DNA from: Dehalococcoidia bacterium
Lineage (GTDB): Bacteria; Chloroflexota; Dehalococcoidia; Plut-88900
Assembly: GCA_965249275.1 (NCBI GenBank)
Contig: CBDFLQ010000007.1
Coordinates: 864,001 to 928,000, forward strand
Length of the DNA: 64,000 bases
Direction of reading: 5' to 3'
Below are positions 42,760 through 62,522 of the stretch, one piece after another. Every line of letters starts with the position of its first letter. Within the stretch, counting starts at the first letter, position 1. The notes below the pieces were generated by a model that was not told the DNA's origin, did not search any database, and saw only the letters and a program-made list of their open reading frames with translations. The position numbers were made by a program, and so were the translations under genes.

Positions 42760-43908
42760 TCAGCCCAGGCCATATAGCTCTGCGGCATTTGTATATGTGA
42801 TCCGCCTCTGTTCCAGCTCCGTAAGTCCTCCCAACACATGAGTCAGCACCTGCCTTGATCGGGGCCAGGTCGACTCTCGGTGGGGGTAGTCCGACCCCCA
42901 CATTACCCTATCGACCCCTACCATAGAAAGTAGCGGCACGAATACAGGGTCCTCCATGAAGGTGAAAAGAACGTTCTGTCTTATGAAGTCACTCGGGAGT
43001 TTGCCGTCCTTGAAGCGTATTTCCGTCACGTATCCATGCTCAGAATAGGTCATGTCCATGCGGTGTATGAAGTGCGGCGCCCAGCCTACGTCGTGCTCTA
43101 CTACAGCCAACCGGAGGCCAGGGTAACGTTCGAACACGCCTGCGAAGACCATGTCGGCAACGGAGCGCATGGCCCAATAGTGGTACGTAGATCTGAAGGC
43201 TGCGTCACCGGACTTCTGCACGGTCATGGCAAAGTCGCCAATGCTGAACCTGCCGGGCCCCGGCCTTTCAGAACCTGCGTGCATGCTCAGAGGCATACAC
43301 AAATCCTCGGCCTTTTCCCAAAACGAGTTGTAGAAGGGTAGACGGTAGGGCGATTCATCTCCTGGATAGGTAGGTATGGCTGCGGAGCGCAATCCTAACT
43401 TGGAGCACCTGTGCAGTTCATCTACAGCATCCTCGGTGTTTTCTACGTTTATAAGGGCTGCGCCGGCCAGCTTACTTGGATAAGCCCCGACAAATTCAGA
43501 CGTCCAGTCGTTCACCGCGCGAAAACAGGCCGACATCAGTTCTCCACCGACTGGCGAAGTATAGATGCGGGTCCCGATGGTCGAGTAGACCATCTCGGCC
43601 TCAACACCGTCCTCTGCCATGGCCTCCAACCTTGCGCCAGGGTCGTAGCCAGCCTCGGGGACCTCTTCCATGCGGGCGGCGAGACCAAGGTTCGACAATC
43701 CCTCATACCGACGCCCAGCCTGCGAAGGCGCACCCAACGACCCCAAATTAACCCCATCTCCCACCACCCAGCGATGCACTCCATCTTCCTCTACAAGCCT
43801 CGGGGCGGCATCCTTGAACCGGTTATCTATCCTCTCCTCCCAGAGGTCGGGAGGTTCTACAACGTGGGAGTCAGCAGAGATCAGCGAGGTTATGGCCATA
43901 GTCTTCAT
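42760..43908 (-). CDS. amidohydrolase_2 family protein
   Basis: ISADSHVVEP, GVFERYP, WGSDYPHRESTWP. Confidence 0.9.
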   Translation of the reverse strand: MKTMAITSLISADSHVVEPPDLWEERIDNRFKDAAPRLVEEDGVHRWVVGDGVNLGSLGAPSQAGRRYEGLSNLGLAARMEEVPEAGYDPGARLEAMAEDGVEAEMVYSTIGTRIYTSPVGGELMSACFRAVNDWTSEFVGAYPSKLAGAALINVENTEDAVDELHRCSKLGLRSAAIPTYPGDESPYRLPFYNSFWEKAEDLCMPLSMHAGSERPGPGRFSIGDFAMTVQKSGDAAFRSTYHYWAMRSVADMVFAGVFERYPGLRLAVVEHDVGWAPHFIHRMDMTYSEHGYVTEIRFKDGKLPSDFIRQNVLFTFMEDPVFVPLLSMVGVDRVMWGSDYPHRESTWPRSRQVLTHVLGGLTELEQRRITYTNAAELYGLG

Positions 43909-44318: not shown

Positions 44319-45557
44319 GAGATCTTTGCATAACCTTGGGATAGGGGCAACAATAAGGTGCTTGAGCATCGATGTATGAGGAGGGTGGTATGCACCGAGA
44401 CATGGGCCAATCTTCATTAGCGGAATCGTTGTTGCCTGAGACCTTGGGTAACAATGAACGGCTGCAACGAATCGACGATGCGGTGGACTGGGGTCGGTTC
44501 GGCCGGTTGGTTGTGGGAGTCTACTCGGCGTGTGAAGGAAGGCCTAGCTATCCACCGCTGACGATGGTCAAGGTGCTATTGCTGGAGCAGTGGTACAACC
44601 TGTCGGATCCTCAGATGGAGGAGGCTCTGGGGGACCGGATATCGTTCCGGCGGTTTGTGGGGCTGGGGCTTCAGGATGACACACCTGACCACTCTACGAT
44701 GAGCCGGTTCCGGGCCATGTTGACGGAGATAGGGGTTGTGGAAGGGTTGATGGAAGAGTTGAACAGGCAGCTAGAGGAGAAGGGGATGATGGTGAAGGCT
44801 GGGACGCTGATGGATGCGACGCTAGTGGAGTCCCAGGGGAGGCGGGTGTCAAAGAAAGAAGAGGCAACGGATAAGGATGCGGCATGGGCACGTAAGGGAG
44901 GACGGAATTACTACGGGTACAAGGTGCATGTTGGGGTGGACGAGGGGAGTGGGCTGATACGGAAGGCGGTGTTGACGCCGGCCAACCTGAACGACACGGA
45001 GGTGGCCGACGAGTTAATAATGGGAGACGAGGGGGCGGTGCACGCTGATCGGGCGTACGACACGCATGAGAGGAGGCAGAAGCTGAAGTCTATGGGGATA
45101 GGGGACAGGACAATGAAGAGGGGGAACAAGCATCATCCTGAAGTTAGTGAAGAGGATAGGGAACGGAACGAGCTGATATCGAGGGTGAGGGCCAGAGTGG
45201 AGAAGGTGTTCGGGACACTGAAGCGGACATACGGATACAGTCGGGTGCGCTACGGAGATGTGGTTGAAGTGCATGGCCTACAATCTGCGCAGGGCAGATC
45301 GGATAGTGCTAAATGGAACGTGAGAAAGTGGCGGAGCAGTGGGCTATGCAGGAACGTCTGTTATTGAAACAGCCTCCTGGGGACGTTCTGGCTGTTAGCA
45401 GACGCCGGAATTCCCCATCCCAAGGCATAAGATCACCGACCTTAGCAACTGAGACATCCCAAAATCACAACATCGTGAGTTACGTAAAGGTCTCATCGAG
45501 GGAGAGGGTATAGGACTCCGCCCCACGCCCTCTCCCTTGGGGTTATGCAAACGTCTC
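44319..45557 (+). mobile_element. IS5-family element with two candidate right ends
   Basis: Left IR GAGATCTTTGCATAACC (44319); right-end-like GTTACGTAAAGGTCTC (~45479-45494) and GGTTATGCAAACGTCTC (45541-45557); no clear TSD. Confidence 0.8.
44372..45367 (+). pseudogene. IS5-family transposase with C-terminal deletion/frameshift
   Basis: PDHSTMSRFR, MDATLVE, GYKVHVG, ADRAYD, RARVEKVFG; after RVRY the expected tail EMWLKCMAYNLRR lies in another frame. Confidence 0.85.
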
Positions 45558-52149: not shown

Positions 52150-53600
52150 TTGGATCGGCGGGCGGAGGAGGCCTGGAAACAATTTGAGAAGGCGACGGAG
52201 GTTGCTGTTCGGCAGACATACGAAGAAACCGGAATCATAATGGATCCTCGCTTTGTCTTTTACGATAACAGACACAACGCCCACATATGGGTAGGCACTC
52301 CTATCACCTACTCTTCCAAACTAAGCAATGGCCGGTGGTTCACGGTAGACCAACTGCCCGATGTGGACGATCTGGGTTGGTTGCCCGACGGTCAACAATT
52401 GGCCGCTATTGGGTCCGATATGCTCCAAGGGATGGCGGTGTGGCAGGCATGGCTTTACGTCCTGGAACCTGGGCAGGCCCAGCAACGTCTGACCGACGAT
52501 ATCGTGCGTCCCTATCTAACCTTCGCCACCGTCAGCAGACCTCCGGAATTGCGTTGGACCGAGGACGGCCGCATCTTGTTCCTGGGAGACCAGAGGGGAG
52601 AATCAAAGCTGTTCGAAGTACCGGCCTCCGGCGGGCGCTGCCGCCAGGTGGCTGGCGGTGGTTGGCAAAGCAGCAGCATTAGCATTGATGAGAACGTACA
52701 GGCAGCGGTGGTGCTCTCCTCCTACCCATGGTCCCCCAATGAACTTTATTATCTCGATCTGGTGTCGACGGTCAACGAACAACTGACTCATTACAGCGAC
52801 GAGTACCTAACGAATCGCCCGCCCGCCCGTATGGAAAAATTCGCTGTCCAGCGGGAAAGACTACAACTGGACTGCCGGTTGTGGTTGCCTCAGGGGTTTG
52901 ACCGCAGCCGGCAGTACCCTATGGTGCTGGATATACAGGTGGGCCCAACGGTGCTTTTTACGATTCCTTCACGCCATTGCAGCAGATCCTGGTTACTTCG
53001 GGTTACCTGGTCCTGGCGGTCAATCCTCGGGGGTCTTCGACCTACCGCAAAGATTTCATGATGTCGGTGTTGGGAGATTGGGGAGGGGAAGACTATCAGG
53101 ACTTGATGGCGGCGGTGGATGAGGTAGCGGCCCGGCCGTACGTGGATGAAGGTCGGCTGGGGGTCTGCGGGTATAGCTACGGCGGCTTCATGACCAGTTG
53201 GATCATCAGCCACAATGACCGGTTCAAGGCTGCGGTGGTTGGCGCTCCCTGCACAGACCTGTACAGCATGTACGGGACCTCGGACATTGGAGTAAGTTTC
53301 GGTGAGGACCAATGGGGCGGGAGCTTGGTGGACGCAGCCGAGAAACTGATCAAACACTCGCCCATTACCTACGCAAGCAAGGTCAACACCCCGGTGGTGC
53401 TGTTGCACGGAGAGGCCGACGCTCGGTGTCCGGTGGCTCAAAGCGAAGAGTACTTCGTGGTCTTAAAGCGGCTGGGAAAACAGGTGGAGTTCGTCCGGTT
53501 CCCGGAGTGCAACCACCTCTTTCTTAGGACCGGCCATCCCAAGATGCGGGAGGAATATTTGGCCCGCACTGTGGGGTGGTTTCAGAAGTGGCTGGGGTAG
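52150..53600 (+). pseudogene. S9 family peptidase, N-truncated and frameshifted
   Basis: gat ata ca- ggt ggg ccc (expected DIHGGP) at ~52931-52947; downstream GYSYGG, DARCP, NH catalytic motifs. Confidence 0.85.
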
Positions 53601-53644: not shown

Positions 53645-55768
53645 TTATGCTCCCGCGGCTTGTCTCCCCACCACTGGGTCTTCTTCAGCAGGCCGCAACG
53701 ATGCCACGCCGTCAACTTGCAGCCGGGCCAGCTCTTCCAGCGGAATGTGGCAATAGATCACGTGATCTCCACCGTTCGAGGTGAGCGCGGGCGGCGGAGT
53801 ATCGTCGCATATAGCTCCGATCTTTCGAGGACAACGCGCGGCGAAGAAGCAACCCTGAAACTGATCCCTCATGGTAGGCACGAACCCCGGCAGCCGGATC
53901 GTGGTTGGCTGAGCATCGGGATCGGGGACCGGCGCCGACGACATCAAAGCCTCGGTGTAGGGGTGGGACGGCATCGCAAGCACGTTCTTGGCCGGCCCCG
54001 ACTCGGCAACGTGCCCTGCGTAGAGCACCAGGATATCGTCGGCGAGGTACCGCACCACGCCCAGATCGTGGGTGATGAACACGTAGGACGTGTTCGTTTC
54101 CTGCTGGTGGGACCGTAGCAAGTTCAGTACTTGAGCCTGGACGGACACATCCAGGGCGGAGACGGCCTCGTCGGCAACGACAATGTCCGGCGAAGCGGCG
54201 AAAGCCCCGGCCAGTGCCACGCGCTGTTGCTCTCCCCCGCTCAGCTCCCCCGGATGCCGGTTTAAGTACCCTGGGTCCAACCCCACGGCTTGTAACAATT
54301 CCCCAGCACGCTGTCGGCTCTCCCGTTTATTCAGGCCGGAGAACTTGCGCAGGGATCGAATGATGGCGTGGCGGACGGCAAGTTTTGGATTAAGCGAGGC
54401 GGTCGGGTTCTGGAATACCATGCGCATGGCCGCTTGTTGAGTTCGGGTCCTATTGCCGACGTCGGGCGCCAGTTCCTGATCCTGTAGCTGGAGCTTGCCC
54501 CGGTCCCGAGGCACCAGCCCCACGATGGCCCGGGCAACCGTAGTCTTGCCGGAGCCGCTTTCACCCACGATCCCCAATGTCCGTCCCAGCCCGACGTTGA
54601 AGTCAACTTCATTAACGGCGCGGACCGGCGGCCGGACTCGGGGGCCAAAAAATAGGTACTTGCGTCCCCAACTACCGTAGAAACGGCGGAGACCTCTTGC
54701 CGACAACACTGGTTCTTCTTGGGCGCGACCTATTTCCACGTTGGTCTTCTGTTCACCCCAAATGTCCCGATTAACATCACCCGAATACAAGCAACGAGAG
54801 AGGTGCCCAGAGCCTGTGTCAACGACTGGCGGGGCCTGGCTCCCGCACGATTCCTGGGCTATGGGACACCGCGACATGAAGAGACATGCGTCTGGTGCAG
54901 GTTGGGCGGCAGAAAAGACCACACCCGGGATACTACTGAGCTGAACGGTGGCCCCCGCTTCTGTTGGAGGCGTAGGCACACAACTCAGCAGCCCTCGCGT
55001 GTAGGGATGTTTGGGGGACTTGAACAGCTCCCGCACTGGGGACTCTTCCACAGTCTCGCCAGCGTACATCACTGCGACCCGGTCGGCCACGGCTGCGATC
55101 ACGCCCAGGTTGTGGGTCACGTACAAAATGCCGGCGTTGATCCGCTGCTTCAAGTCCGACACCAGTTCCAGGATAGTCGCTTCCGTGGTGACGTCCAGGC
55201 CCGTCGTAGGTTCGTCCATGATCAGCAGGTCCGGCTCACAGGCTAACGCCATGGCGATGACCACCCGCTGCTGTTGGCCCCCGCTGAGTTCGTGGGGATA
55301 CCGCCGCCCAATCGACTCGGGGTCCGCCAATCGCACGCTTTCGAACAACTCGACAATGCGGCGGCGGGACTCCTCACTGTCCATATGCTGGTGTTGGCTG
55401 AGCACCTCATGAATCTGTGAATCCACCCTCATGGTTGGGTTCAGGGACGTTGCAGGGTCTTGGTAGACCATCGCTATGCGGTTGCCCCGCAAATGGCGCA
55501 GTTCCGACGCGCCCATTTGCGCAACATCCCGGCCTTCGAACAGTATCCGGCCGTCTACCCGTGTAATGCCCGGCAGGTAGCCCATGACGGCGAAGGCAGT
55601 GGTCGACTTGCCGCATCCCGACTCGCCGACGACTCCCATCACCTCGCCTCGATGCACCTCCAGCGACGCATCTCTGACCGCGCGGACGGTGCCCCGGGGC
55701 GTGAAGAAGGTAACGCCCAGATTTTCCACTTGGAGCAGTGGCGTTCCATGGTTTGCCTGGCTGCTCAC
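53645..55768 (-). CDS. fused DppD-DppF type ABC ATPase
   Basis: Two Walker A (GESGCGKS, GESGSGKT), two LSGG signatures, two HPYT/Cys-rich C-terminal domains; GTG overlaps upstream stop. Confidence 0.93.
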   Translation of the reverse strand: MSSQANHGTPLLQVENLGVTFFTPRGTVRAVRDASLEVHRGEVMGVVGESGCGKSTTAFAVMGYLPGITRVDGRILFEGRDVAQMGASELRHLRGNRIAMVYQDPATSLNPTMRVDSQIHEVLSQHQHMDSEESRRRIVELFESVRLADPESIGRRYPHELSGGQQQRVVIAMALACEPDLLIMDEPTTGLDVTTEATILELVSDLKQRINAGILYVTHNLGVIAAVADRVAVMYAGETVEESPVRELFKSPKHPYTRGLLSCVPTPPTEAGATVQLSSIPGVVFSAAQPAPDACLFMSRCPIAQESCGSQAPPVVDTGSGHLSRCLYSGDVNRDIWGEQKTNVEIGRAQEEPVLSARGLRRFYGSWGRKYLFFGPRVRPPVRAVNEVDFNVGLGRTLGIVGESGSGKTTVARAIVGLVPRDRGKLQLQDQELAPDVGNRTRTQQAAMRMVFQNPTASLNPKLAVRHAIIRSLRKFSGLNKRESRQRAGELLQAVGLDPGYLNRHPGELSGGEQQRVALAGAFAASPDIVVADEAVSALDVSVQAQVLNLLRSHQQETNTSYVFITHDLGVVRYLADDILVLYAGHVAESGPAKNVLAMPSHPYTEALMSSAPVPDPDAQPTTIRLPGFVPTMRDQFQGCFFAARCPRKIGAICDDTPPPALTSNGGDHVIYCHIPLEELARLQVDGVASLRPAEEDPVVGRQAAGA

Positions 55769-56739
55769 CTGATGATCTCCCTTGGCAAACCACTGGCCTG
55801 TTTGATGCCGTCGGTCAGGAGATTTACGCCCACCACCAAGGTGGCTACTGCTCCGGCGGGCGCCAGTGTCATCCACGGCGCAGCGACTATGAACTGCCGG
55901 CCCTCTCCGATCATAAGGCCCCAGTCCGGCGATGGCGGTTGAACGCCTAGGCCGAGGAATCCCAAGGAGGACACTATTAGGATCGAGTAGCTGAGCCGCA
56001 CCGAGAGTTCAACGGCCAGGACCGGCAGGGCGTTAGGCAGAATCTCTCTGAAGATAATATAAGGAGCATTCTCTCCCCGCAGACGCGCACTCATCACGAA
56101 TTCCTGATTCTTGACCTTTAGCGTGACGCTTCGCAGCACCCGAGAAATGCCCGGCGCATGGACAACGCCGACGGTGAGCACGATCAGTAAGGCCTCCCAG
56201 TTATCGTCCAGCCACCCCCACGGGGCTTCCCGAGTGCCCAGGGTTGTCAGTACCAAAAGCGCCAGTAGCAACCCCGGGAAGGCCAGCCCTCCGTCCATGA
56301 CGCGCATCACCACTTCGTCCACCCGGCCTCCCTTGTAGCCGCTGGTCATCCCTATCACCGTGCCCAAGAAAATCCCCAGCAGGGCACCGGTCAACGAAAT
56401 CGTTATCAGCGAGCCTGCCCCGGACAACACGCGGCTGAAAACGTCGCGTCCGAACTGGTCCGTTCCCAACAAGTAGGTCCAGTTCGGCCCCGAGAGCCGG
56501 TCCGCAGTGGGAAAATCTGGAGGCAGATGGAATTCACCGAAGGGATAAGGGGCCACCATGGAACCGAAAATCGCCACGAACACGTGGATCAGTACGATGA
56601 CCAGCCCGATGCGTCCCGCCGTCGTGGACAGGGAAAGCCGCAAAAACTCTCGGATCCCCCGGCCCGTGGCGAAAAACGCTGGCTGGGCGGCAGTGGGCAC
56701 GCCAACGCGAAGCCTACTTGTGGTAAACCGCACCGCCAT
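55765..56739 (-). CDS. peptide/nickel ABC permease (DppC-like)
   Basis: LGTDQFGRDVFSR, EFVMSARLRG, LGFLGLGVQPPSPDWG. Confidence 0.93.
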   Translation of the reverse strand: MAVRFTTSRLRVGVPTAAQPAFFATGRGIREFLRLSLSTTAGRIGLVIVLIHVFVAIFGSMVAPYPFGEFHLPPDFPTADRLSGPNWTYLLGTDQFGRDVFSRVLSGAGSLITISLTGALLGIFLGTVIGMTSGYKGGRVDEVVMRVMDGGLAFPGLLLALLVLTTLGTREAPWGWLDDNWEALLIVLTVGVVHAPGISRVLRSVTLKVKNQEFVMSARLRGENAPYIIFREILPNALPVLAVELSVRLSYSILIVSSLGFLGLGVQPPSPDWGLMIGEGRQFIVAAPWMTLAPAGAVATLVVGVNLLTDGIKQASGLPREIIR

Positions 56740-58727
56740 TAGGTGTACCTTATCCGTGGGTCTAGGACGGCGTAGCTCAGGTCTGCCAACAGGGTGCTAA
56801 CGGTATAGGTCACAGCGATGAGCAGCGAAAGGGCCTGCAACAAGGGAATGTCACGGGTCTGGACCGAGCTCAATAGCAGTTGCCCCAGGCCAGGATAGGC
56901 GAACACATTCTCAACGATGATGAGCCCAGCCAAAAGCCACCCGGTCATCGTAGCAACGATGCTTATAGTGGGGAGCATCGCATTGGGAACGACATGCCGA
57001 AATATGACCTTCCGCATCGGAAGGCCCTTCAGGATCGCTGTCCGCACGTAGGGGCTCTCCATCACCTCGTTCACGTTGGCACGAGTCATTCTCATAATGT
57101 AGGCGAATACCACGCCGGTCAGGGTGAGGGTCGGCAGCACCAAGATCTCCGGTTTGGTTAAGGGACTTTCCCCCCGGGGTATGGCGCTGGTGGTCGGTAA
57201 CCAGCCCAACTGCGAGGAAAAGATGACCATCAACACCACCCCAGTCACAAACTCCGGCAGCGATATCCCTACCATACCGACAGCGCTGATTATGCGGTCG
57301 CCTATGGTGTTGGGGCGCACCCCGGCCCATGTACCTACAAGGACCGCAGCGGGGACCGCTATCAGAAAAGCAAACGACGCAAGATATATGGACGGCAACA
57401 ACCGGTGCGCGATAACGTCTGTAACGGGCCGTCTCTGCAGCAAAGAATCGCCGAAGTCGCCCCCCAGCGCACCCGATCGCCAGACGGTATCGTCGGAGGC
57501 AGCCCAGGCGCTGACGTCGCCGGACTCGCTTACGTGGATGGCAAGGTCATTCAGTGGCCTGGCCGTGAGCACTCTCTGATCTGCGTTCGTCCCCTGCCGA
57601 TCCTCAAAGATCGCCTGGCGGCTCCAGAAGGCGCCCCCGTCGCTGGTTGTCAGAACCGTCCCCTTGCTTCCGACTATGACGCCGTCGGCGCCGTCGAAGG
57701 AGACAGCATGAAGCGCACTCTTTAGAGACGTACCGATGGTACGACTGGCCCAGGTGACGCCACCGTCTGCGCTATACAGTGCCGTTCCACCATCACCAAC
57801 CGCCCACACGGCCGCGTGGCGGTCAAAGCCCTGGGGCGCTGCGTCCAATACAAAGTCGACAGCGTTCAGTGTCGATGTCGTGCCTGCGTCTGAGCTTTGC
57901 CAGGTCCTGCCACCATCTACGGTCACCAGGATCGTGCCGCTTTCCCCGACAACGATGCCTTGCTCAGCGTTGGCAAAGACCACCGAAAAAAGCGTCACGT
58001 CGACACCTGTGTCCGCCGTATCCCAGCTCAAACCGCCATCGGTGGAGCGTAGTACGAGCCCCTTCTCTCCGGTTATCCAGAGGCGATTGGAGTCCGCGAA
58101 GGCGATGTCGGTAAGCGTCGATGTCGTTCCGCTCTCCACAGGAGCCCAAGTCGAGAGTACCCCATCTTGACATACCACATTCACAGCTGCAGCGCCTTCA
58201 CATTCTACCTGCTGCCCATCCTCCTCCAACGGGACCCCACCCGCCCCGGTGCGGTAGATCGTGCCTTCCTCTCCGATGGCAATTCCACTCTCATCATCTA
58301 TGAATTCGATGGCCGTCAGCGGATGCTCCACTTCAATCTGTCTGATCCACTGCACCCCGCCGTCTTCGGTGTTGTAAATGCGGTTCCTAGAAACAGCCCA
58401 TCCCAGTTTGGAAGATACGAAGGTGGGAGTGGTTACGATGGGATTCTGGCTCACCCGCTTCCAGGTTGCTCCGCCGTCGCTGGTCCTGAACAATGCTCCT
58501 TCCCTCTTGGTCCACCCGACAAGCCAAGTTGCGAACCGCTCGGGAGCGGGGCGGTCCAAGCCCATCTGTTCCCTTAGGTACTTGATATTATCGTCCGTTC
58601 CATACAGCCCCATCATTATCTGCGCCGCATCACCCGGCAGTAGCTCTGTGACGCCGAATATGACCACGGAGACAACGAAGAGGGTGATTACTATCAACCC
58701 TAGGCGTACCGTTATGAAACGTAACAT
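56739..58727 (-). CDS. peptide/nickel ABC permease (DppB-like) with inserted Asp-box/Ycf48-like domain
   Basis: LPGDAA...GLDRP...W [insert with seven (S/T)xDGGxxW-type repeats] GDFGDS...PV; YVRTAILKG, ENVFAYPGLG, DPRIR. Confidence 0.9.
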   Translation of the reverse strand: MLRFITVRLGLIVITLFVVSVVIFGVTELLPGDAAQIMMGLYGTDDNIKYLREQMGLDRPAPERFATWLVGWTKREGALFRTSDGGATWKRVSQNPIVTTPTFVSSKLGWAVSRNRIYNTEDGGVQWIRQIEVEHPLTAIEFIDDESGIAIGEEGTIYRTGAGGVPLEEDGQQVECEGAAAVNVVCQDGVLSTWAPVESGTTSTLTDIAFADSNRLWITGEKGLVLRSTDGGLSWDTADTGVDVTLFSVVFANAEQGIVVGESGTILVTVDGGRTWQSSDAGTTSTLNAVDFVLDAAPQGFDRHAAVWAVGDGGTALYSADGGVTWASRTIGTSLKSALHAVSFDGADGVIVGSKGTVLTTSDGGAFWSRQAIFEDRQGTNADQRVLTARPLNDLAIHVSESGDVSAWAASDDTVWRSGALGGDFGDSLLQRRPVTDVIAHRLLPSIYLASFAFLIAVPAAVLVGTWAGVRPNTIGDRIISAVGMVGISLPEFVTGVVLMVIFSSQLGWLPTTSAIPRGESPLTKPEILVLPTLTLTGVVFAYIMRMTRANVNEVMESPYVRTAILKGLPMRKVIFRHVVPNAMLPTISIVATMTGWLLAGLIIVENVFAYPGLGQLLLSSVQTRDIPLLQALSLLIAVTYTVSTLLADLSYAVLDPRIRYT

Positions 58728-58939
58728 GTGCTCAACAGCCTATCAGTAGCCTCTGAGAAGCGGGGCCGGCGGATGGAGTAACCAAGTGCAAACTGGCGAT
58801 CTTAAATCGCCGGGAGGTTTTATCTCTTTGGAGGACAATCGTGTCACATGGCGAATTTGTAGAGGGGTTTAAGAGGAGATATCCAAGCGGCGGTCTGCTT
58901 TCCAGCCACCAAGGAGTCGTCGAAAGTTAGCCCGATTCA

Positions 58940-59066
58940 ACGCTATCAGGCTATCGGGAAATTGTCAATTTAGAATGTTTGACAAAGAATTAGATGCGTT
59001 TGCCCTGTACCATTTTTAGTAAGAGAATAAGGCTTAGTTGACACCCCCTCCCCCGTGTGATAGCTT
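58940..59066. promoter_or_regulatory. divergent sigma70-type promoters
   Basis: Minus: TTGACA(58968-58963)-N17-TAGCGT; plus: TTGACA(59038-59043)-N17-TAGCTT; both with extended TG; TTGTCAA-N10-TTGACAA palindrome at 58962-58985. Confidence 0.6.
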
Positions 59067-59146
59067 TCGGAAACTGGTCGGCCGCTTAATGGCACACCGC
59101 TCCTAAAATAGACAAGTGACGATCGGCAAGTCCGTGATGTTCGGCT

Positions 59147-59224
59147 AAAAATCCCCCCAATGGGCCCCCTCTAGTGAGGGGGTTGGGAGGATTTTCATCC
59201 GTCGGTGGCGCCCCAGCTGGGGCA
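59147..59224. repeat. palindromic (REP-like) hairpins in SBP leader
   Basis: AAAATCCCCCCAA...TTGGGAGGATTTT and GCCCCAG/CTGGGGC stems. Confidence 0.45.
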
Positions 59225-59271
59225 TGAGAACGGCAAACAGTACGTTTGCCGCCCAATGGGAGGAGACCGTC

Positions 59272-61191
59272 ATGAGATCCAAGATAGCTAGTCTGCATCC
59301 ATTCTTGCTCCTGCTCGCCGTGGCACTGGTATCCGTCCTCTTCGTCGTAGCATGTGGCGATGGCGATCCCGAGCCCACTGCAGCACCCGTCGACACAGGG
59401 GCCGCGGAAGCTGCCGCAGAAGCCGCCGCTGCTGCCGAAGCCGCAGAGGCGGCCGTTTTAGAGGCAGAGGCCACACTGTCAGAGGCAGCAATGGCCGCGG
59501 AAGCCGCAGCTAAGGCTGCTGAGGAAGCTGTCGCCTTTGCCGCAGAGCTCGCTGCCGCTGCCCAGGCTGCCGCAGAGGCCGCCGGCACCGCTGATTCCGC
59601 GGCAGTTATGGCCGCCCAAGAGGCCGCCGCTCAGGCCGTGGCCGCTGCCGAAGCCGCTGCCGCCCAAGTTACCGAGCTAGCGATGGCCGCCGCAGAAGCT
59701 CAAGCCGAGGCCGCCGAGCTAGCCGCTGCCGCCGCAGAGGCCGCCGCACAGGCTGGGGCGCCGAAGTACGGTGGCACGCTGACATTTGCGCAACACCAAG
59801 CCACCGGGACGCTGGACCCGGCCACTAGTCTGGGCGGGGTTGAGTACATCGTTATGCTAGCAGTCTATGACAATCTGCTCATGATCCAGCCGGACTTAAC
59901 GGTGAAGCCAGAGCTGGCCACGTCATGGGAGGCCAACGACGACTTCTCGTCCTACACCTTCTACTTGCGCGAGGGCGTGAAGTTCCGCCACGGGAAGGAG
60001 TTCAAAGCGGAGGACGTAGTCTTCACCATCAACCGGCTGCTGGACCCGGAGCTGGACTCTCGAGCGCGGCCCATCTTCGAGGTTATCCAGGACATGGTCG
60101 TCCTCGACGACTACACCATCCGCTTCGACCTGGAAGGCCCCAACGGGTTCTTCCTGGATATCCTATCGGAACCACTAGCGCATATCCTCCCTGCCGACAT
60201 AGATGTCGAGCGTTTGGCCCAGGAGGAGTTCGGCACTGGGCCCTTCATGATTGAGGAGCGCCTGCCGGGCGAACGCACGACGCTGGTGCGTAATCCCGAC
60301 TACTGGGAGGAGGGCAAGCCCTACCTGGACGAGATTGTCATCCAGGCGATCCCCGAGGCCGCTGCCCGGGTGGAGGCGCTCAAGAACGGCGACGTGGACA
60401 TCGTATGGCAGGTGAATCCCCAGAGCGTCCCCAGTATCGCGGCCAATCCCGAGACCACGGTGTTGAACGCGGCCAGCTTCTCCCATCTTGCGCTGTGTAT
60501 ACCCACCAACGTGCCGCCCTTCGACGACAAGCTGGTCCGGAAGGCCATGCAAGCGGCGACGGACCGGGAAGGCATCAACCAAGCGGTGCTGCTCGGGCTG
60601 GGCATCCCCGCCCGCGACCACCCCATTCACCCCAGCCACGCCGTCTTCGCGTCGCAGTATGCACCCCCGGATTACGACCCCGAACTGGCGAGGTCGCTGC
60701 TGGAGCAGGCCGGGTACCCGGACGGGATCGACTTCACCCTGTACACATCCGACATCGGTCCAGGGTTGATCGAATTGGCGGTGGCATACAAAGAGAGTGC
60801 TGCGCCCGCGGGCATCCGGATCGACGTCGAGCGGGCGCCATCGGAGGTATACTGGTCACAGGTCTGGAATACTGGGAAGTTGGCCTCCGTCTATTGGTTC
60901 GGCTTCATGCCGGACCAAGCCCTGCTCAGGCAGATCCACAGCGAGGCCGCTTTTAACTGTCCGCGTTACTCCAACCCGGTGGTGGACGAGCTGATCGAAA
61001 AGGCCAGGGGGCAGGACCTTGAGGGCCAGAAGGAGAGCTACGGGGAGATCCAGCGCATTCTGATCGATGACGTTCCGCGTTTGATCGTGGTGTTCCAGCC
61101 GTGGATATACGGCGTGAATAAGGACCTGCGGGGTGTAGCCCCCCATCCGCGGGGATTTGCGATCATCCAGGACGCCTGGTTCGACCGATAA
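59272..61191 (+). CDS. family 5 ABC substrate-binding lipoprotein with Ala/Glu-rich N-terminal linker
   Basis: Lipobox VVAC; A/E low-complexity tract; PKYGGTL, LATSWE, LREGVKF, GTGPF, NPDYW, YDPELARSLLEQAG; GGAGG RBS. Confidence 0.93.
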   Translation: MRSKIASLHPFLLLLAVALVSVLFVVACGDGDPEPTAAPVDTGAAEAAAEAAAAAEAAEAAVLEAEATLSEAAMAAEAAAKAAEEAVAFAAELAAAAQAAAEAAGTADSAAVMAAQEAAAQAVAAAEAAAAQVTELAMAAAEAQAEAAELAAAAAEAAAQAGAPKYGGTLTFAQHQATGTLDPATSLGGVEYIVMLAVYDNLLMIQPDLTVKPELATSWEANDDFSSYTFYLREGVKFRHGKEFKAEDVVFTINRLLDPELDSRARPIFEVIQDMVVLDDYTIRFDLEGPNGFFLDILSEPLAHILPADIDVERLAQEEFGTGPFMIEERLPGERTTLVRNPDYWEEGKPYLDEIVIQAIPEAAARVEALKNGDVDIVWQVNPQSVPSIAANPETTVLNAASFSHLALCIPTNVPPFDDKLVRKAMQAATDREGINQAVLLGLGIPARDHPIHPSHAVFASQYAPPDYDPELARSLLEQAGYPDGIDFTLYTSDIGPGLIELAVAYKESAAPAGIRIDVERAPSEVYWSQVWNTGKLASVYWFGFMPDQALLRQIHSEAAFNCPRYSNPVVDELIEKARGQDLEGQKESYGEIQRILIDDVPRLIVVFQPWIYGVNKDLRGVAPHPRGFAIIQDAWFDR

Positions 61192-61406: not shown

Positions 61407-62522
61407 GTGGCTGATTACAGGGTCATATCCTCGGATAATCACATCATCGAGCCGGTCGACCTATGGACCAGTAGGGGCGAGTCAAAGTTCAAAGACCGAA
61501 TGCCTCACGTTGAACGTTTGGAAGAGGGCGATTATTGGATTTGCGAGGGCGTGAAAGAAATGAGCATCGCTGCGGGGACGCAGGTCGGACTCAGGTTTGA
61601 AGAGCCGGAAAAGCTGAGATTTGGGGGTGGCAGGACAGAAGATGTGCCCCCAGGGGGTTACATTCCCGAGGAGCACGTCAAAGACATGGATATCGACGGA
61701 ATTGACGTGAGTATCGTCTATCCGACAACCGCTCTTGGGCTCTACAGTGTACCGGACGGCGAGCTACTAAACTCCATATTCAGGACCTACAACGATTGGG
61801 TTGGCGAATTCTGCAGCGCGGTCCCCGAGCGGCTCGAGGGTATCGCAATGATAAATTTGGATGATGTGCGGACCGGTATAAAGGAGGTGGAACGCTGTGC
61901 CAAGCTGGGCCTTGCCGGTGCTGCGATTACCGCCTATCCTCCCCAGGCGCGGCCCTACGACAAGCCGGAGTACGAACCCCTGTGGGCTGCGGCCCAGGAC
62001 TTGGCAATGCCCCTTAGCCTGCACACTGGAACTAATCGTAAGGATGGTTTTGTAAATACCGATACCGTGACGGCCTCTTTTATGACTAACTTTGACTATT
62101 GGGTGCGTATGTCTCTTGGCGATATGATCTTTAGCGGCGTTTTTGAGCGCTATCCGAAACTCCAGGTGGGCTCGATAGAGTATGCGCTAGCCTGGGCTCC
62201 CCACTTCTTGAGCCGGATGGACATAATGTACTCCGAAACAGGCGTAGAGCTCACCCAGGGGTACCGGTTCAAAGGCGATGCGCTTCCCAGCGACTTCTTC
62301 CACGATAACGTGTTCCTTGGCTTCCAGGAAGATGCCTTGGGCATCAGGTTGCGCGACATCATTGGTGTGGACAACCTGCAGTGGGGCGCGGATTATCCTC
62401 ATCCAGAGTCTACCTTCCCCAGAAGCCGTCAAATTATCGAAGAGATTCTGGTGGACTGTACTGAGGAGGAAAGGGCCAAGATAGTGGGCGGCAATGCCGC
62501 CAGAGTGTACGGTCTCAATTAG
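61407..62522 (+). CDS. amidohydrolase_2 family protein
   Basis: ISSDNHIIEP, YNDW, GVFERYP, WGADYPHPESTFP; AAGGAGG RBS. Confidence 0.9.
   Translation: MADYRVISSDNHIIEPVDLWTSRGESKFKDRMPHVERLEEGDYWICEGVKEMSIAAGTQVGLRFEEPEKLRFGGGRTEDVPPGGYIPEEHVKDMDIDGIDVSIVYPTTALGLYSVPDGELLNSIFRTYNDWVGEFCSAVPERLEGIAMINLDDVRTGIKEVERCAKLGLAGAAITAYPPQARPYDKPEYEPLWAAAQDLAMPLSLHTGTNRKDGFVNTDTVTASFMTNFDYWVRMSLGDMIFSGVFERYPKLQVGSIEYALAWAPHFLSRMDIMYSETGVELTQGYRFKGDALPSDFFHDNVFLGFQEDALGIRLRDIIGVDNLQWGADYPHPESTFPRSRQIIEEILVDCTEEERAKIVGGNAARVYGLN

Follow-up and report, generated by a model that had tools for sequence, protein, structure and literature searches.

In a 64,000-nucleotide stretch of the genome of a Dehalococcoidia bacterium (GenBank assembly GCA_965249275.1, contig CBDFLQ010000007.1, positions 864,001 to 928,000 of the forward strand; hereafter the window, and G000 for its genome), four genes encode an ATP-binding cassette (ABC) importer with an unusually built permease. 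Our analyses show that this system is a type I ABC importer of the peptide/opine/nickel (Dpp/Opp) kind whose DppB subunit bears a folded, acidic, seven-bladed beta-propeller, and that the arrangement, in which a new accessory domain is added to an otherwise canonical type I importer, is real and conserved. The genes for DppB, DppC and the ATPase are tightly packed on the minus strand, the start of dppC overlapping the stop of dppB at 56739, and the binding-protein gene is divergent. In positions of the window, the features are:

53645-55768, minus: fused DppD/DppF ATPase gene, with two ABC_tran domains and two oligo_HPY tails (Pfam; the open reading frame, ORF, extends to 55876)
55765-56739, minus: dppC-type permease gene, 324 amino acids (ORF; Pfam BPD_transp_1 and OppC_N)
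56739-58727, minus: dppB-type permease gene with the inserted propeller, 662 amino acids (ORF and translation; Pfam BPD_transp_1_N, PSII_BNR and BPD_transp_1)
56739-57470, minus: residues 420-662 of this permease and the stop, with the GDFG motif, transmembrane helices (TM) 2 to 6 and the coupling helix, i.e. the BPD_transp_1 core (Pfam; aligns with E. coli DppB 72-337)
57471-58514, minus: residues 72-419, the insert of 348 amino acids, a seven-bladed Ycf48-like Asp-box beta-propeller
58170-58205, minus: residues 175-186, an acidic loop that emerges from within the hairpin of the third Asp-box and contains C176 and C186, the sole cysteines of the protein
58515-58727, minus: residues 1-71, with TM1, the scoop motif (two short helices, about 34-55) and a short helix at 61-70 (Pfam, model and DppB alignment)
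58728-59223: intergenic region separating the divergent dppB and binding-protein genes, with a lower G+C, about 0.51 (composition)
59224-61191, plus: gene of a cluster-C substrate-binding lipoprotein (SBP_bac_5), 655 amino acids (ORF, translation, Pfam)

Our ORF calls and translations match the description of the locus in a first-pass annotation made from the sequence, which had also stated that the rest of the system was intact and in frame. Pfam and the ORFs agree for DppC, the fused ATPase and the divergent binding protein, and only the start of the ATPase had to be corrected: it is most likely the GTG at 55768, overlapping the stop codon of DppC, because the ATPase of a paralogous operon aligns from residue 37. 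The binding protein likely starts at M17 (59272), and a comparison of N-termini reveals there (59272-59760, plus) a lipobox (VVAC) and, after it, a low-complexity linker of about 130 residues that is rich in Ala and Glu. The partners of a DppB/OppB-type permease are thus all present, namely DppC, an oligo_HPY-tailed ATPase and a cluster-C SBP_bac_5 protein, and the same gene set is found in the orthologous loci of genomes G005 and G008. None of the four proteins reached the equivalog cut-off of any specific NCBIfam model, so that no substrate name follows; when DppB, OppB, NikB, GsiC and Opp1-4B were tried on the permease, Opp2B scored best (233.7 bits against a cut-off of 350), and DppB gave 149.4 bits against 590.

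A propeller inserted in the outward-facing loop of DppB

Pfam recognized in the 662-residue permease (P0001) BPD_transp_1_N at residues 1-71 (43.5 bits, cut-off 23.8), PSII_BNR (100.3 bits, cut-off 27, E 1.5e-28), Sortilin-Vps10 (45.2 bits) as well as BNR, and BPD_transp_1 at residues 461-660 (112.4 bits, cut-off 26.4), so that the three kinds of domain expected by the first-pass annotation do lie in one chain; the insert alone matched PSII_BNR with an E of 7.7e-30. Using HMMER against the solved E. coli DppB, residues 1-69 align with DppB 1-70 and residues 419-512 with DppB 72-165, and the permease core aligns with DppB 205-337 (E 7.8e-28) and also with OppB and with M. tuberculosis DppB and OppB. 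Because the flanks align in this manner, the additional 348 residues are, as judged from the alignment, a clean insertion and not a divergent loop, and the earlier claim that an insert of about 350 residues (about 57470-58520) splits the conserved loop signature holds, with boundaries at residues 72 and 419 (57471-58514). Like the solved E. coli DppBCDF (8z1v-8z1z) and OppB (8z21), the permease of the window has TM1, the scoop, the short helix, the GDxG motif and the core of TM2-6; solved DppB and OppB proteins, however, are 306-339 residues long and without a propeller, while here a propeller of 348 residues lies between the equivalents of DppB 70 and 72. By hydropathy, a single hydrophobic segment precedes the insert and five follow, six TM in total, and the model helices agree even though model confidence is low in that part. 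In the N-terminal part the predicted helices span residues 2-29, 34-42, 45-55 and 61-70. The scoop region is conserved in all 23 fused homologues that we aligned (alignment A1), with PGD and GLD invariant.

All seven Asp-box repeats quoted in the first-pass annotation are present where it had placed them, at residues 81-89, 119-127, 159-164 with 192-194 (a split repeat), 227-235, 268-276, 318-326 and 360-368, and so is the two-cysteine loop of the third repeat (residues 175-186), whose cysteine pair occurs in 20 of the 23 homologues and is the sole cysteine content of most of those. The insert holds 46 Asp and Glu against 23 Lys and Arg, for a net charge of -23, and every one of the homologous inserts is acidic, with net charges from -9 to -35. 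Its conserved residues are mostly structural (Gly, Trp and the Asp-box positions), and no ligand site could be identified in it.

An AlphaFold2 model computed on A1 has a predicted local distance difference test (pLDDT) score of about 80-92 over residues 73-416, with the exception of the low-confidence cysteine loop (167-190). The membrane part was poorly modelled (pLDDT 40-60; mean of the whole model 68, predicted template modelling score 0.54), hence the mutual orientation of the two domains is not readable from it. Foldseek returned Ycf48 as best match (5ojr and 2xbg, E 5e-14 to 2e-12, with identities of 14-16% to the solved chains), followed by the Streptomyces protease-binding propeller DAIP and, for the membrane part, by E. 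coli DppB. VIA-align superposed residues 76-411 of the model on a seven-bladed propeller with a Z of 28.8 and a root-mean-square deviation of 2.4 over 277 residues, although many seven-bladed propellers tie within 2-3 Z units; geometry therefore tells us that this is a complete seven-bladed propeller, and it is the sequence only that assigns it to the Asp-box/Ycf48 kind. Taken with the PSII_BNR match, these results substantiate the Asp-box propeller that had been proposed.

The loop which hosts the insert, P1, between TM1 and TM2, is periplasmic in the solved E. coli and M. tuberculosis DppB, according to passages of PMC12136057 and PMC10954201. The same passages describe the scoop motif as an alpha1-loop-alpha2 element (E. 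coli DppB 32-62) that enters the cleft of the binding protein and is followed by a short helix, and they report hydrogen bonds between Y82 and S83 of M. tuberculosis DppB and the N-lobe of its binding protein. In the permease of the window the propeller directly follows the scoop helices and the short helix and precedes the GDFG motif and TM2, and the residues that align with Y82 and S83, L429 and Q431, are found 10-12 residues past the propeller exit. Based on the periplasmic location of this loop in the solved proteins, with which a lone cysteine pair conserved in 20 of 23 homologues is compatible, the insert is placed in the outward-facing P1 loop; by the DppB alignment and the model it is folded and external, as first suggested, rather than cytoplasmic or unfolded.

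Authenticity and selective constraint

Could the architecture be an artefact of a chimeric assembly, or a neutral insertion in the course of being lost? This is exceedingly improbable in our judgment. At 90% identity the permease belongs to a cluster of 31 sequences, 14 of the 15 listed members being 662 residues long, and the members were read from separate contigs of up to 4.99 Mb (NCBI, ENA, Logan). In one sequencing run (X1), a contig of 1,492 nucleotides covers 57246-58737 with five differences and no gap and bridges both junctions, and in a run of a different study (X7) separate contigs bridge each of them; independent runs thereby exclude the chimera that the first-pass annotation had named as a risk. 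Contigs from two RNA libraries (X15 and X17) bridge the N-side junction as well, a weak hint of expression given that these libraries can also contain DNA; other parts of the gene have no cover from RNA libraries. A joint of 57951 to 58545 occurs in a single contig of X1 and in another of X7; with 22 letters on its shorter side, below the caution mark of the tool, and among blades that resemble one another, it is left uninterpreted. The architecture is shared by 50 of the 120 best listed homologues, down to 35% identity, and neither frameshifts nor stops were seen in the insert in the 23 aligned homologues. Among the orthologues of G000, G005 and G008 the ratio of nonsynonymous to synonymous substitution rates (dN/dS) is 0.25-0.34 in the insert and 0.09-0.30 in the membrane part, which indicates that the insert is under purifying selection. 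The existence of close paralogues without the propeller, and the gain or loss of the domain at least three times on the tree described below, could be cited in favor of dead weight; the 31-member cluster, the bridging contigs, the dN/dS values, the confident model and conservation to about 35% identity speak against it.

Comparison with a propeller-less paralogue

Five genomes of the same genus (G001, G002, G003, G007 and G008) have an operon with a DppB of ordinary length, and one of them, G008, has both forms. Because the neighbourhoods of the two forms differ, they are paralogues and not alleles. Identities between the window system and that of G001 are as follows:

DppB TM1: 33/35 identical
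DppB scoop/helix segment (36-71): 13/36 identical (36%)
DppB residues 420-434: 11/15 identical
DppB TM2-6: 193/228 identical
DppC: 84.6% identical
ATPase: 86.4% identical
Binding-protein core: 233/476 identical (49%)

The pair within G008 gives a very similar picture (TM1 31/35, scoop 15/36, TM2-6 195/228, binding-protein core 234/476). In the signal peptide and Ala/Glu linker of the binding protein, identity is 82-83% for the G000/G001 pair and 45-54% for the G008 pair, a mosaic pattern. By these comparisons the scoop, the presence of the propeller and the core of the binding protein change together while the remainder of the system stays nearly constant, and it is above all on this co-variation that we base the idea of a function linked to the binding protein or to its cargo. 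The Ala/Glu linker itself was considered as the reason for the propeller and rejected, as the binding protein of the propeller-less paralogue has a similar one.

Distribution

A word-seeded search with residues 60-440, in which 8,000 candidates were scored, yielded 1,621 proteins at E <= 0.001. Among the best 120 of these, with fused proteins from 95% to 35% identical, 48 combine PF00528 with PF14870 and two truncated ones combine PF19300 with PF14870; the remaining 70 are free-standing multi-domain Ycf48-like proteins (26-45% identity). The names given are "ABC transporter permease subunit" (Chloroflexi/Chloroflexota bacterium) or "hypothetical protein" (Dehalococcoidia bacterium), and for this reason the architecture is invisible in annotation. 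The best 150 matches of a 50%-identity library include five fused representatives (P0125, P0132, P0153, P0188 and P0209), four of them confirmed by Pfam and the fifth through the copy in its own genome; P0148 and P0175 appear to be fragments, judging by their lengths and matched ranges. The ESM Atlas holds one cluster of 86 members, commonest in Chloroflexota, with BPD_transp_1 on 100% and PSII_BNR on 88% of them. An OppC-type cluster of the same atlas has PSII_BNR on 12% of its members (score 0.88), which we take as a lead only.

Within the order to which the window belongs, fused genes were found in 5 of 12 species-representative genomes, namely G000 (two), G002, G005, G008 and G010 (four), and the queries used detected none in the other seven. 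Of 401 genomes sampled evenly across the class, with only three candidates scored per genome, four gave full-length matches, all of the same order; in a sample of 401 genomes of the phylum, G000 alone matched a query of the insert plus junctions at E <= 1e-25. The survey across Chloroflexota that had been proposed finds the architecture to be rare on the evidence of these samples of about 400 genomes each, with no instance in them outside this order. A profile search of genome contigs with A1 listed mainly free-standing propellers, its best locus (L007, Gaiellaceae) being an ordinary DppB of 337 residues, and a similar search of metagenome contigs had no fused locus among the 78 listed. Two frames of 645 (G040) and 652 (G017) residues that looked like fused genes were discarded as over-extended ORFs of ordinary DppB, in which BPD_transp_1_N begins at 332 and 337, respectively.

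In G000, which is 87% complete, PSII_BNR matches are confined to the two fused genes, two of the three detected BPD_transp_1_N genes are fused, and there are five SBP_bac_5 genes for at least three DppB-type permeases. The second propeller-bearing DppB of this genome lies outside the window (C7:1059956-1062004; locus L107:5957-8005) and has 682 residues and about 29% identity; it has its own binding-protein and DppC genes and no adjacent ATPase gene, and a helical segment of about 70 residues replaces the cysteine loop of blade 3. Loci L103-L106 of G010 contain four fused DppB paralogues, none of which has an ATPase gene within about 5 kb.

Evolutionary history and a hot spot for insertions

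A maximum-likelihood tree was built from 304 permease columns (P0001 residues 11-65 and 414-662), with 46 rows and 200 bootstraps; P0187, whose N-terminus does not resemble DppB, was excluded, and P0251 carried a label of its own. On this tree three groups of fused proteins are separated by unfused ones, well-supported branches force at least three gains or losses, and in none of the 200 bootstrap trees do the fused proteins form a single group. The insertion point and the junction residues are nevertheless the same in all groups, for which reason the likeliest history, as far as sequences can tell, is a single origin followed by losses or by recombinational transfer between paralogous dppB genes.

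The same loop accommodates other domains. P0251 (436 residues) carries at the same site of DppB an unrelated, unclassified, Trp-rich and beta-rich insert of about 130 residues, and P0024 (771 residues) has a further unclassified stretch of about 120 residues within the last propeller blade. The partner subunit, in turn, has relatives (P0432-P0437; six clusters of metagenome proteins of 577-609 residues) that are 66-70% identical to the DppC of the window in the membrane part and that hold six LDL-receptor class B (YWTD) repeats (Pfam E 1e-38 to 1e-46) in the TM1-TM2 loop; none of these was found in the class sample of 401 genomes. They resemble our permease in family and in having a whole propeller in the TM1-TM2 loop, and they differ in being the other subunit, in having an unrelated type of propeller and in lying outside the window. 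That two unrelated propellers occupy matching loops of both subunits suggests that an outward propeller is of general benefit to this transporter.

Likeness to known systems

In its fused single-chain ATPase and its lipid-anchored binding protein, the system of the window is like the M. tuberculosis system, of which DppABCD (8wd9) and OppABCD (8j5q) are solved, as far as the passages describing it go. The closest functional precedent for the insert is possibly the P2 domain of MalF in the E. coli maltose importer, which likewise is a sizeable folded domain set into a loop on the outer side of a type I permease. According to passages of PMC6906923, P2 binds the N-lobe of MalE through the cycle and is called a unique extended periplasmic domain; it is, however, Ig-like, of about 185 residues, and located in the TM3-TM4 loop of a sugar importer, whereas our insert is a seven-bladed propeller, 348 residues long, and belongs to a Dpp/Opp-type importer, where it occupies the TM1-TM2 loop. 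Moreover, binding to the binding protein is established for P2, whereas for the propeller it would follow by analogy from position.

Ycf48/HCF136 is also a seven-bladed Asp-box propeller, and gives the best Pfam (PSII_BNR) and Foldseek matches to the insert. Passages of PMC10403576 describe Ycf48 as sitting on a membrane's outer face, where it binds a membrane protein's loops and C-terminal tail, contacting D1 through a patch of six conserved arginines. Ycf48 is, nonetheless, a free-standing lumenal lipoprotein of oxygenic phototrophs, and the propeller of the window is internal to a permease chain, which scored 102 bits, below the cut-off of 326, against the Ycf48 equivalog PRK13684. The insert as a whole is strongly acidic, and HMMER aligns the repeats in two different blade registers, which leaves the patch residues unmatched.

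Extra outward domains covalently joined to a permease are also familiar from importers of the OpuA and GlnPQ type, where a binding-protein fold is fused to the permease end and a free binding protein is dispensed with. Our insert differs in being a propeller inside a loop and not a binding-protein fold, and in that a separate SBP_bac_5 gene is kept. Full-text literature searches turned up no description of a propeller or Asp-box domain inside a Dpp/Opp permease (subscription journals being outside this coverage), in line with the earlier remark that no characterised example was known, and no already described family came to light.

Possible functions of the propeller

The first-pass annotation had proposed a built-in surface propeller that captures, scaffolds or gates a bulky substrate or docks the binding protein. 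The structural half of that proposal stands, considering the fold, the outward site and the intact system; the functional half could be narrowed only. The explanation that we tentatively favour, by analogy with MalF P2, is that the propeller acts as an accessory outer platform for docking or capture that works with the tethered binding protein. It would stand beside the N-lobe side of the docking site, where it would hold or orient the cognate binding protein, or else keep the cargo of that protein nearby, so that docking, insertion of the scoop and hand-over to the gate would gain efficiency or selectivity. The transport cycle would stay canonical, that is, dependent on the binding protein and driven by ATP, given that the system has kept its scoop, both permease cores, the ATPase and the binding protein. 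What supports docking is the insertion point, 10-12 residues before the equivalents of the N-lobe contacts, together with the co-variation with the scoop and with the binding-protein core. Contact between propeller and binding protein is thus inferred from position and co-variation. Several findings nevertheless weigh against docking. The binding protein of the propeller-less paralogue has a long tether too, and G323 and G383 combine an ordinary DppB with binding proteins 55-56% identical to that of the window, meaning that this family of binding proteins does not need the propeller. Locus L104 of G010, flanked by restriction-modification genes, has no binding-protein gene within about 5 kb. 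In two of the three comparisons the insert evolves faster than the membrane part, and its loops are variable, as would fit a module facing the environment. The differing domains in matching loops (the insert of P0251 and the YWTD repeats in DppC) fit general outward binding at least as well as docking, and a general advantage of outward propellers would weaken any explanation that relies on one specific interface.

These last points lead to a different possibility, the main rival, which we consider doubtful although worth retaining: that the propeller is an independent capture module, binding a bulky or polymeric substrate (a peptide tail, a glycan, a component of the host matrix) or a secreted hydrolase, and concentrating the substrate or its production at the importer mouth. 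Its nearest solved relatives do bind peptide or protein (Ycf48 a D1 peptide, DAIP a thermolysin fragment), the P1 loops of DppB and DppC have more than once taken up unrelated propellers or beta-rich inserts, the propeller's exposed loops vary, the surface is acidic throughout the 23 homologues (net -9 to -35), and at least three gains or losses on the transmembrane-domain tree mark the domain as modular. Independent capture, however, does not by itself explain the placement beside the scoop or the co-variation with scoop and binding-protein core; the residues conserved in the insert, being mostly structural, offer no ligand site, and the neighbouring peptidase gene, of the S9 family, is probably a pseudogene in decay, which the orthologous loci lack. 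It is improbable, in comparison, that the permease merely anchors the propeller at the surface for adhesion or for interaction with a host or matrix, apart from transport, even if parts of the gene occur in runs labelled as sponge or coral metagenomes (two short contigs of one sponge-labelled run at >=95% identity) and the DppC relatives carry LDL-receptor-type YWTD repeats, which are typical "eukaryote-like" repeats of symbionts. A single-pass anchor would suit display better, PSII_BNR propellers occur in G000 only within DppB genes, the insertions sit precisely in functional P1 loops of both subunits, by the docking site, and the habitat evidence is thin. Less probable still is a built-in receptor that would itself take the substrate and feed the translocator without, or instead of, a soluble binding protein. 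Locus L104, and the clade-B fused operons without adjacent ATPase genes, whose components must be shared or remote, could be read in this way; yet a cognate binding-protein gene adjoins the fused gene in three loci of the window type and in four of the five clade-B loci examined, the scoop, known to enter the binding-protein cleft, is conserved, and the genome supplies five SBP_bac_5 genes for at least three DppB-type permeases.

A broader proposal, which we judge unlikely, would see propeller-armed importers of one marine Chloroflexota lineage as a class of their own that arose by convergence, with Ycf48-type propellers in DppB and YWTD-type propellers in DppC placed in matching outward loops on either side of the docking site. 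There they would be built-in receptors for substrates that are bulky or polymeric and possibly come from a host, or for partner enzymes, and would pass what they capture to the binding protein or past it. If this were true, a type I importer would gain a capture stage on its outer side, much as outer-membrane uptake systems have their surface receptors.

In the textbook view of type I ABC importers, specificity is ascribed to the binding protein and the permeases are little elaborated outward. A propeller beside the scoop would be a second kind of accessory domain, besides MalF P2, and the propeller of the partner subunit and the close paralogues lacking the insert provide natural with/without pairs in which the roles of an outward domain, such as recruitment of the binding protein, selectivity among several of them or capture of substrate, could be addressed. 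Should the propeller bind substrates, it would bear on how uncultivated marine Chloroflexota acquire organic matter.

Neighbouring genes

Next to the binding-protein gene lies an Amidohydro_2 gene:

61407-62522, plus: Amidohydro_2 gene adjoining the binding-protein gene (Pfam)

Copies at the same position are 99% (G005) and 94% (G008) identical, and Amidohydro_2 neighbours were found for four of six distinct fused operon types. Since the 2.9-Mb genome G000 contains 102 matches to this family (PF04909), a very large expansion of which the window has a second example at 42760-43908 (minus), such linkage is weak evidence, and we set the gene aside as a functional partner; the association is probably due to chance.

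On the other side of the operon, a peptidase of the prolyl-oligopeptidase (S9) family at 52150-53600 (plus) is split over two overlapping frames, with ORFs of 303 and 207 residues. The corresponding region has no ORF of at least 200 residues in G005 and is missing in G008; this gene, probably a decaying pseudogene, was accordingly rejected as a partner of the importer. The intergenic region has one promoter-like and one terminator-like match, a number not above that in shuffled sequence, and a scan of the locus against Rfam matched no family. A DDE transposase gene (DUF772 and DDE_Tnp_1; 44372-45367, plus) marks an insertion sequence about 8 kb from the operon, and the window further encodes luciferase-like monooxygenases, a family III CoA-transferase and a transporter of the major facilitator superfamily (MFS).

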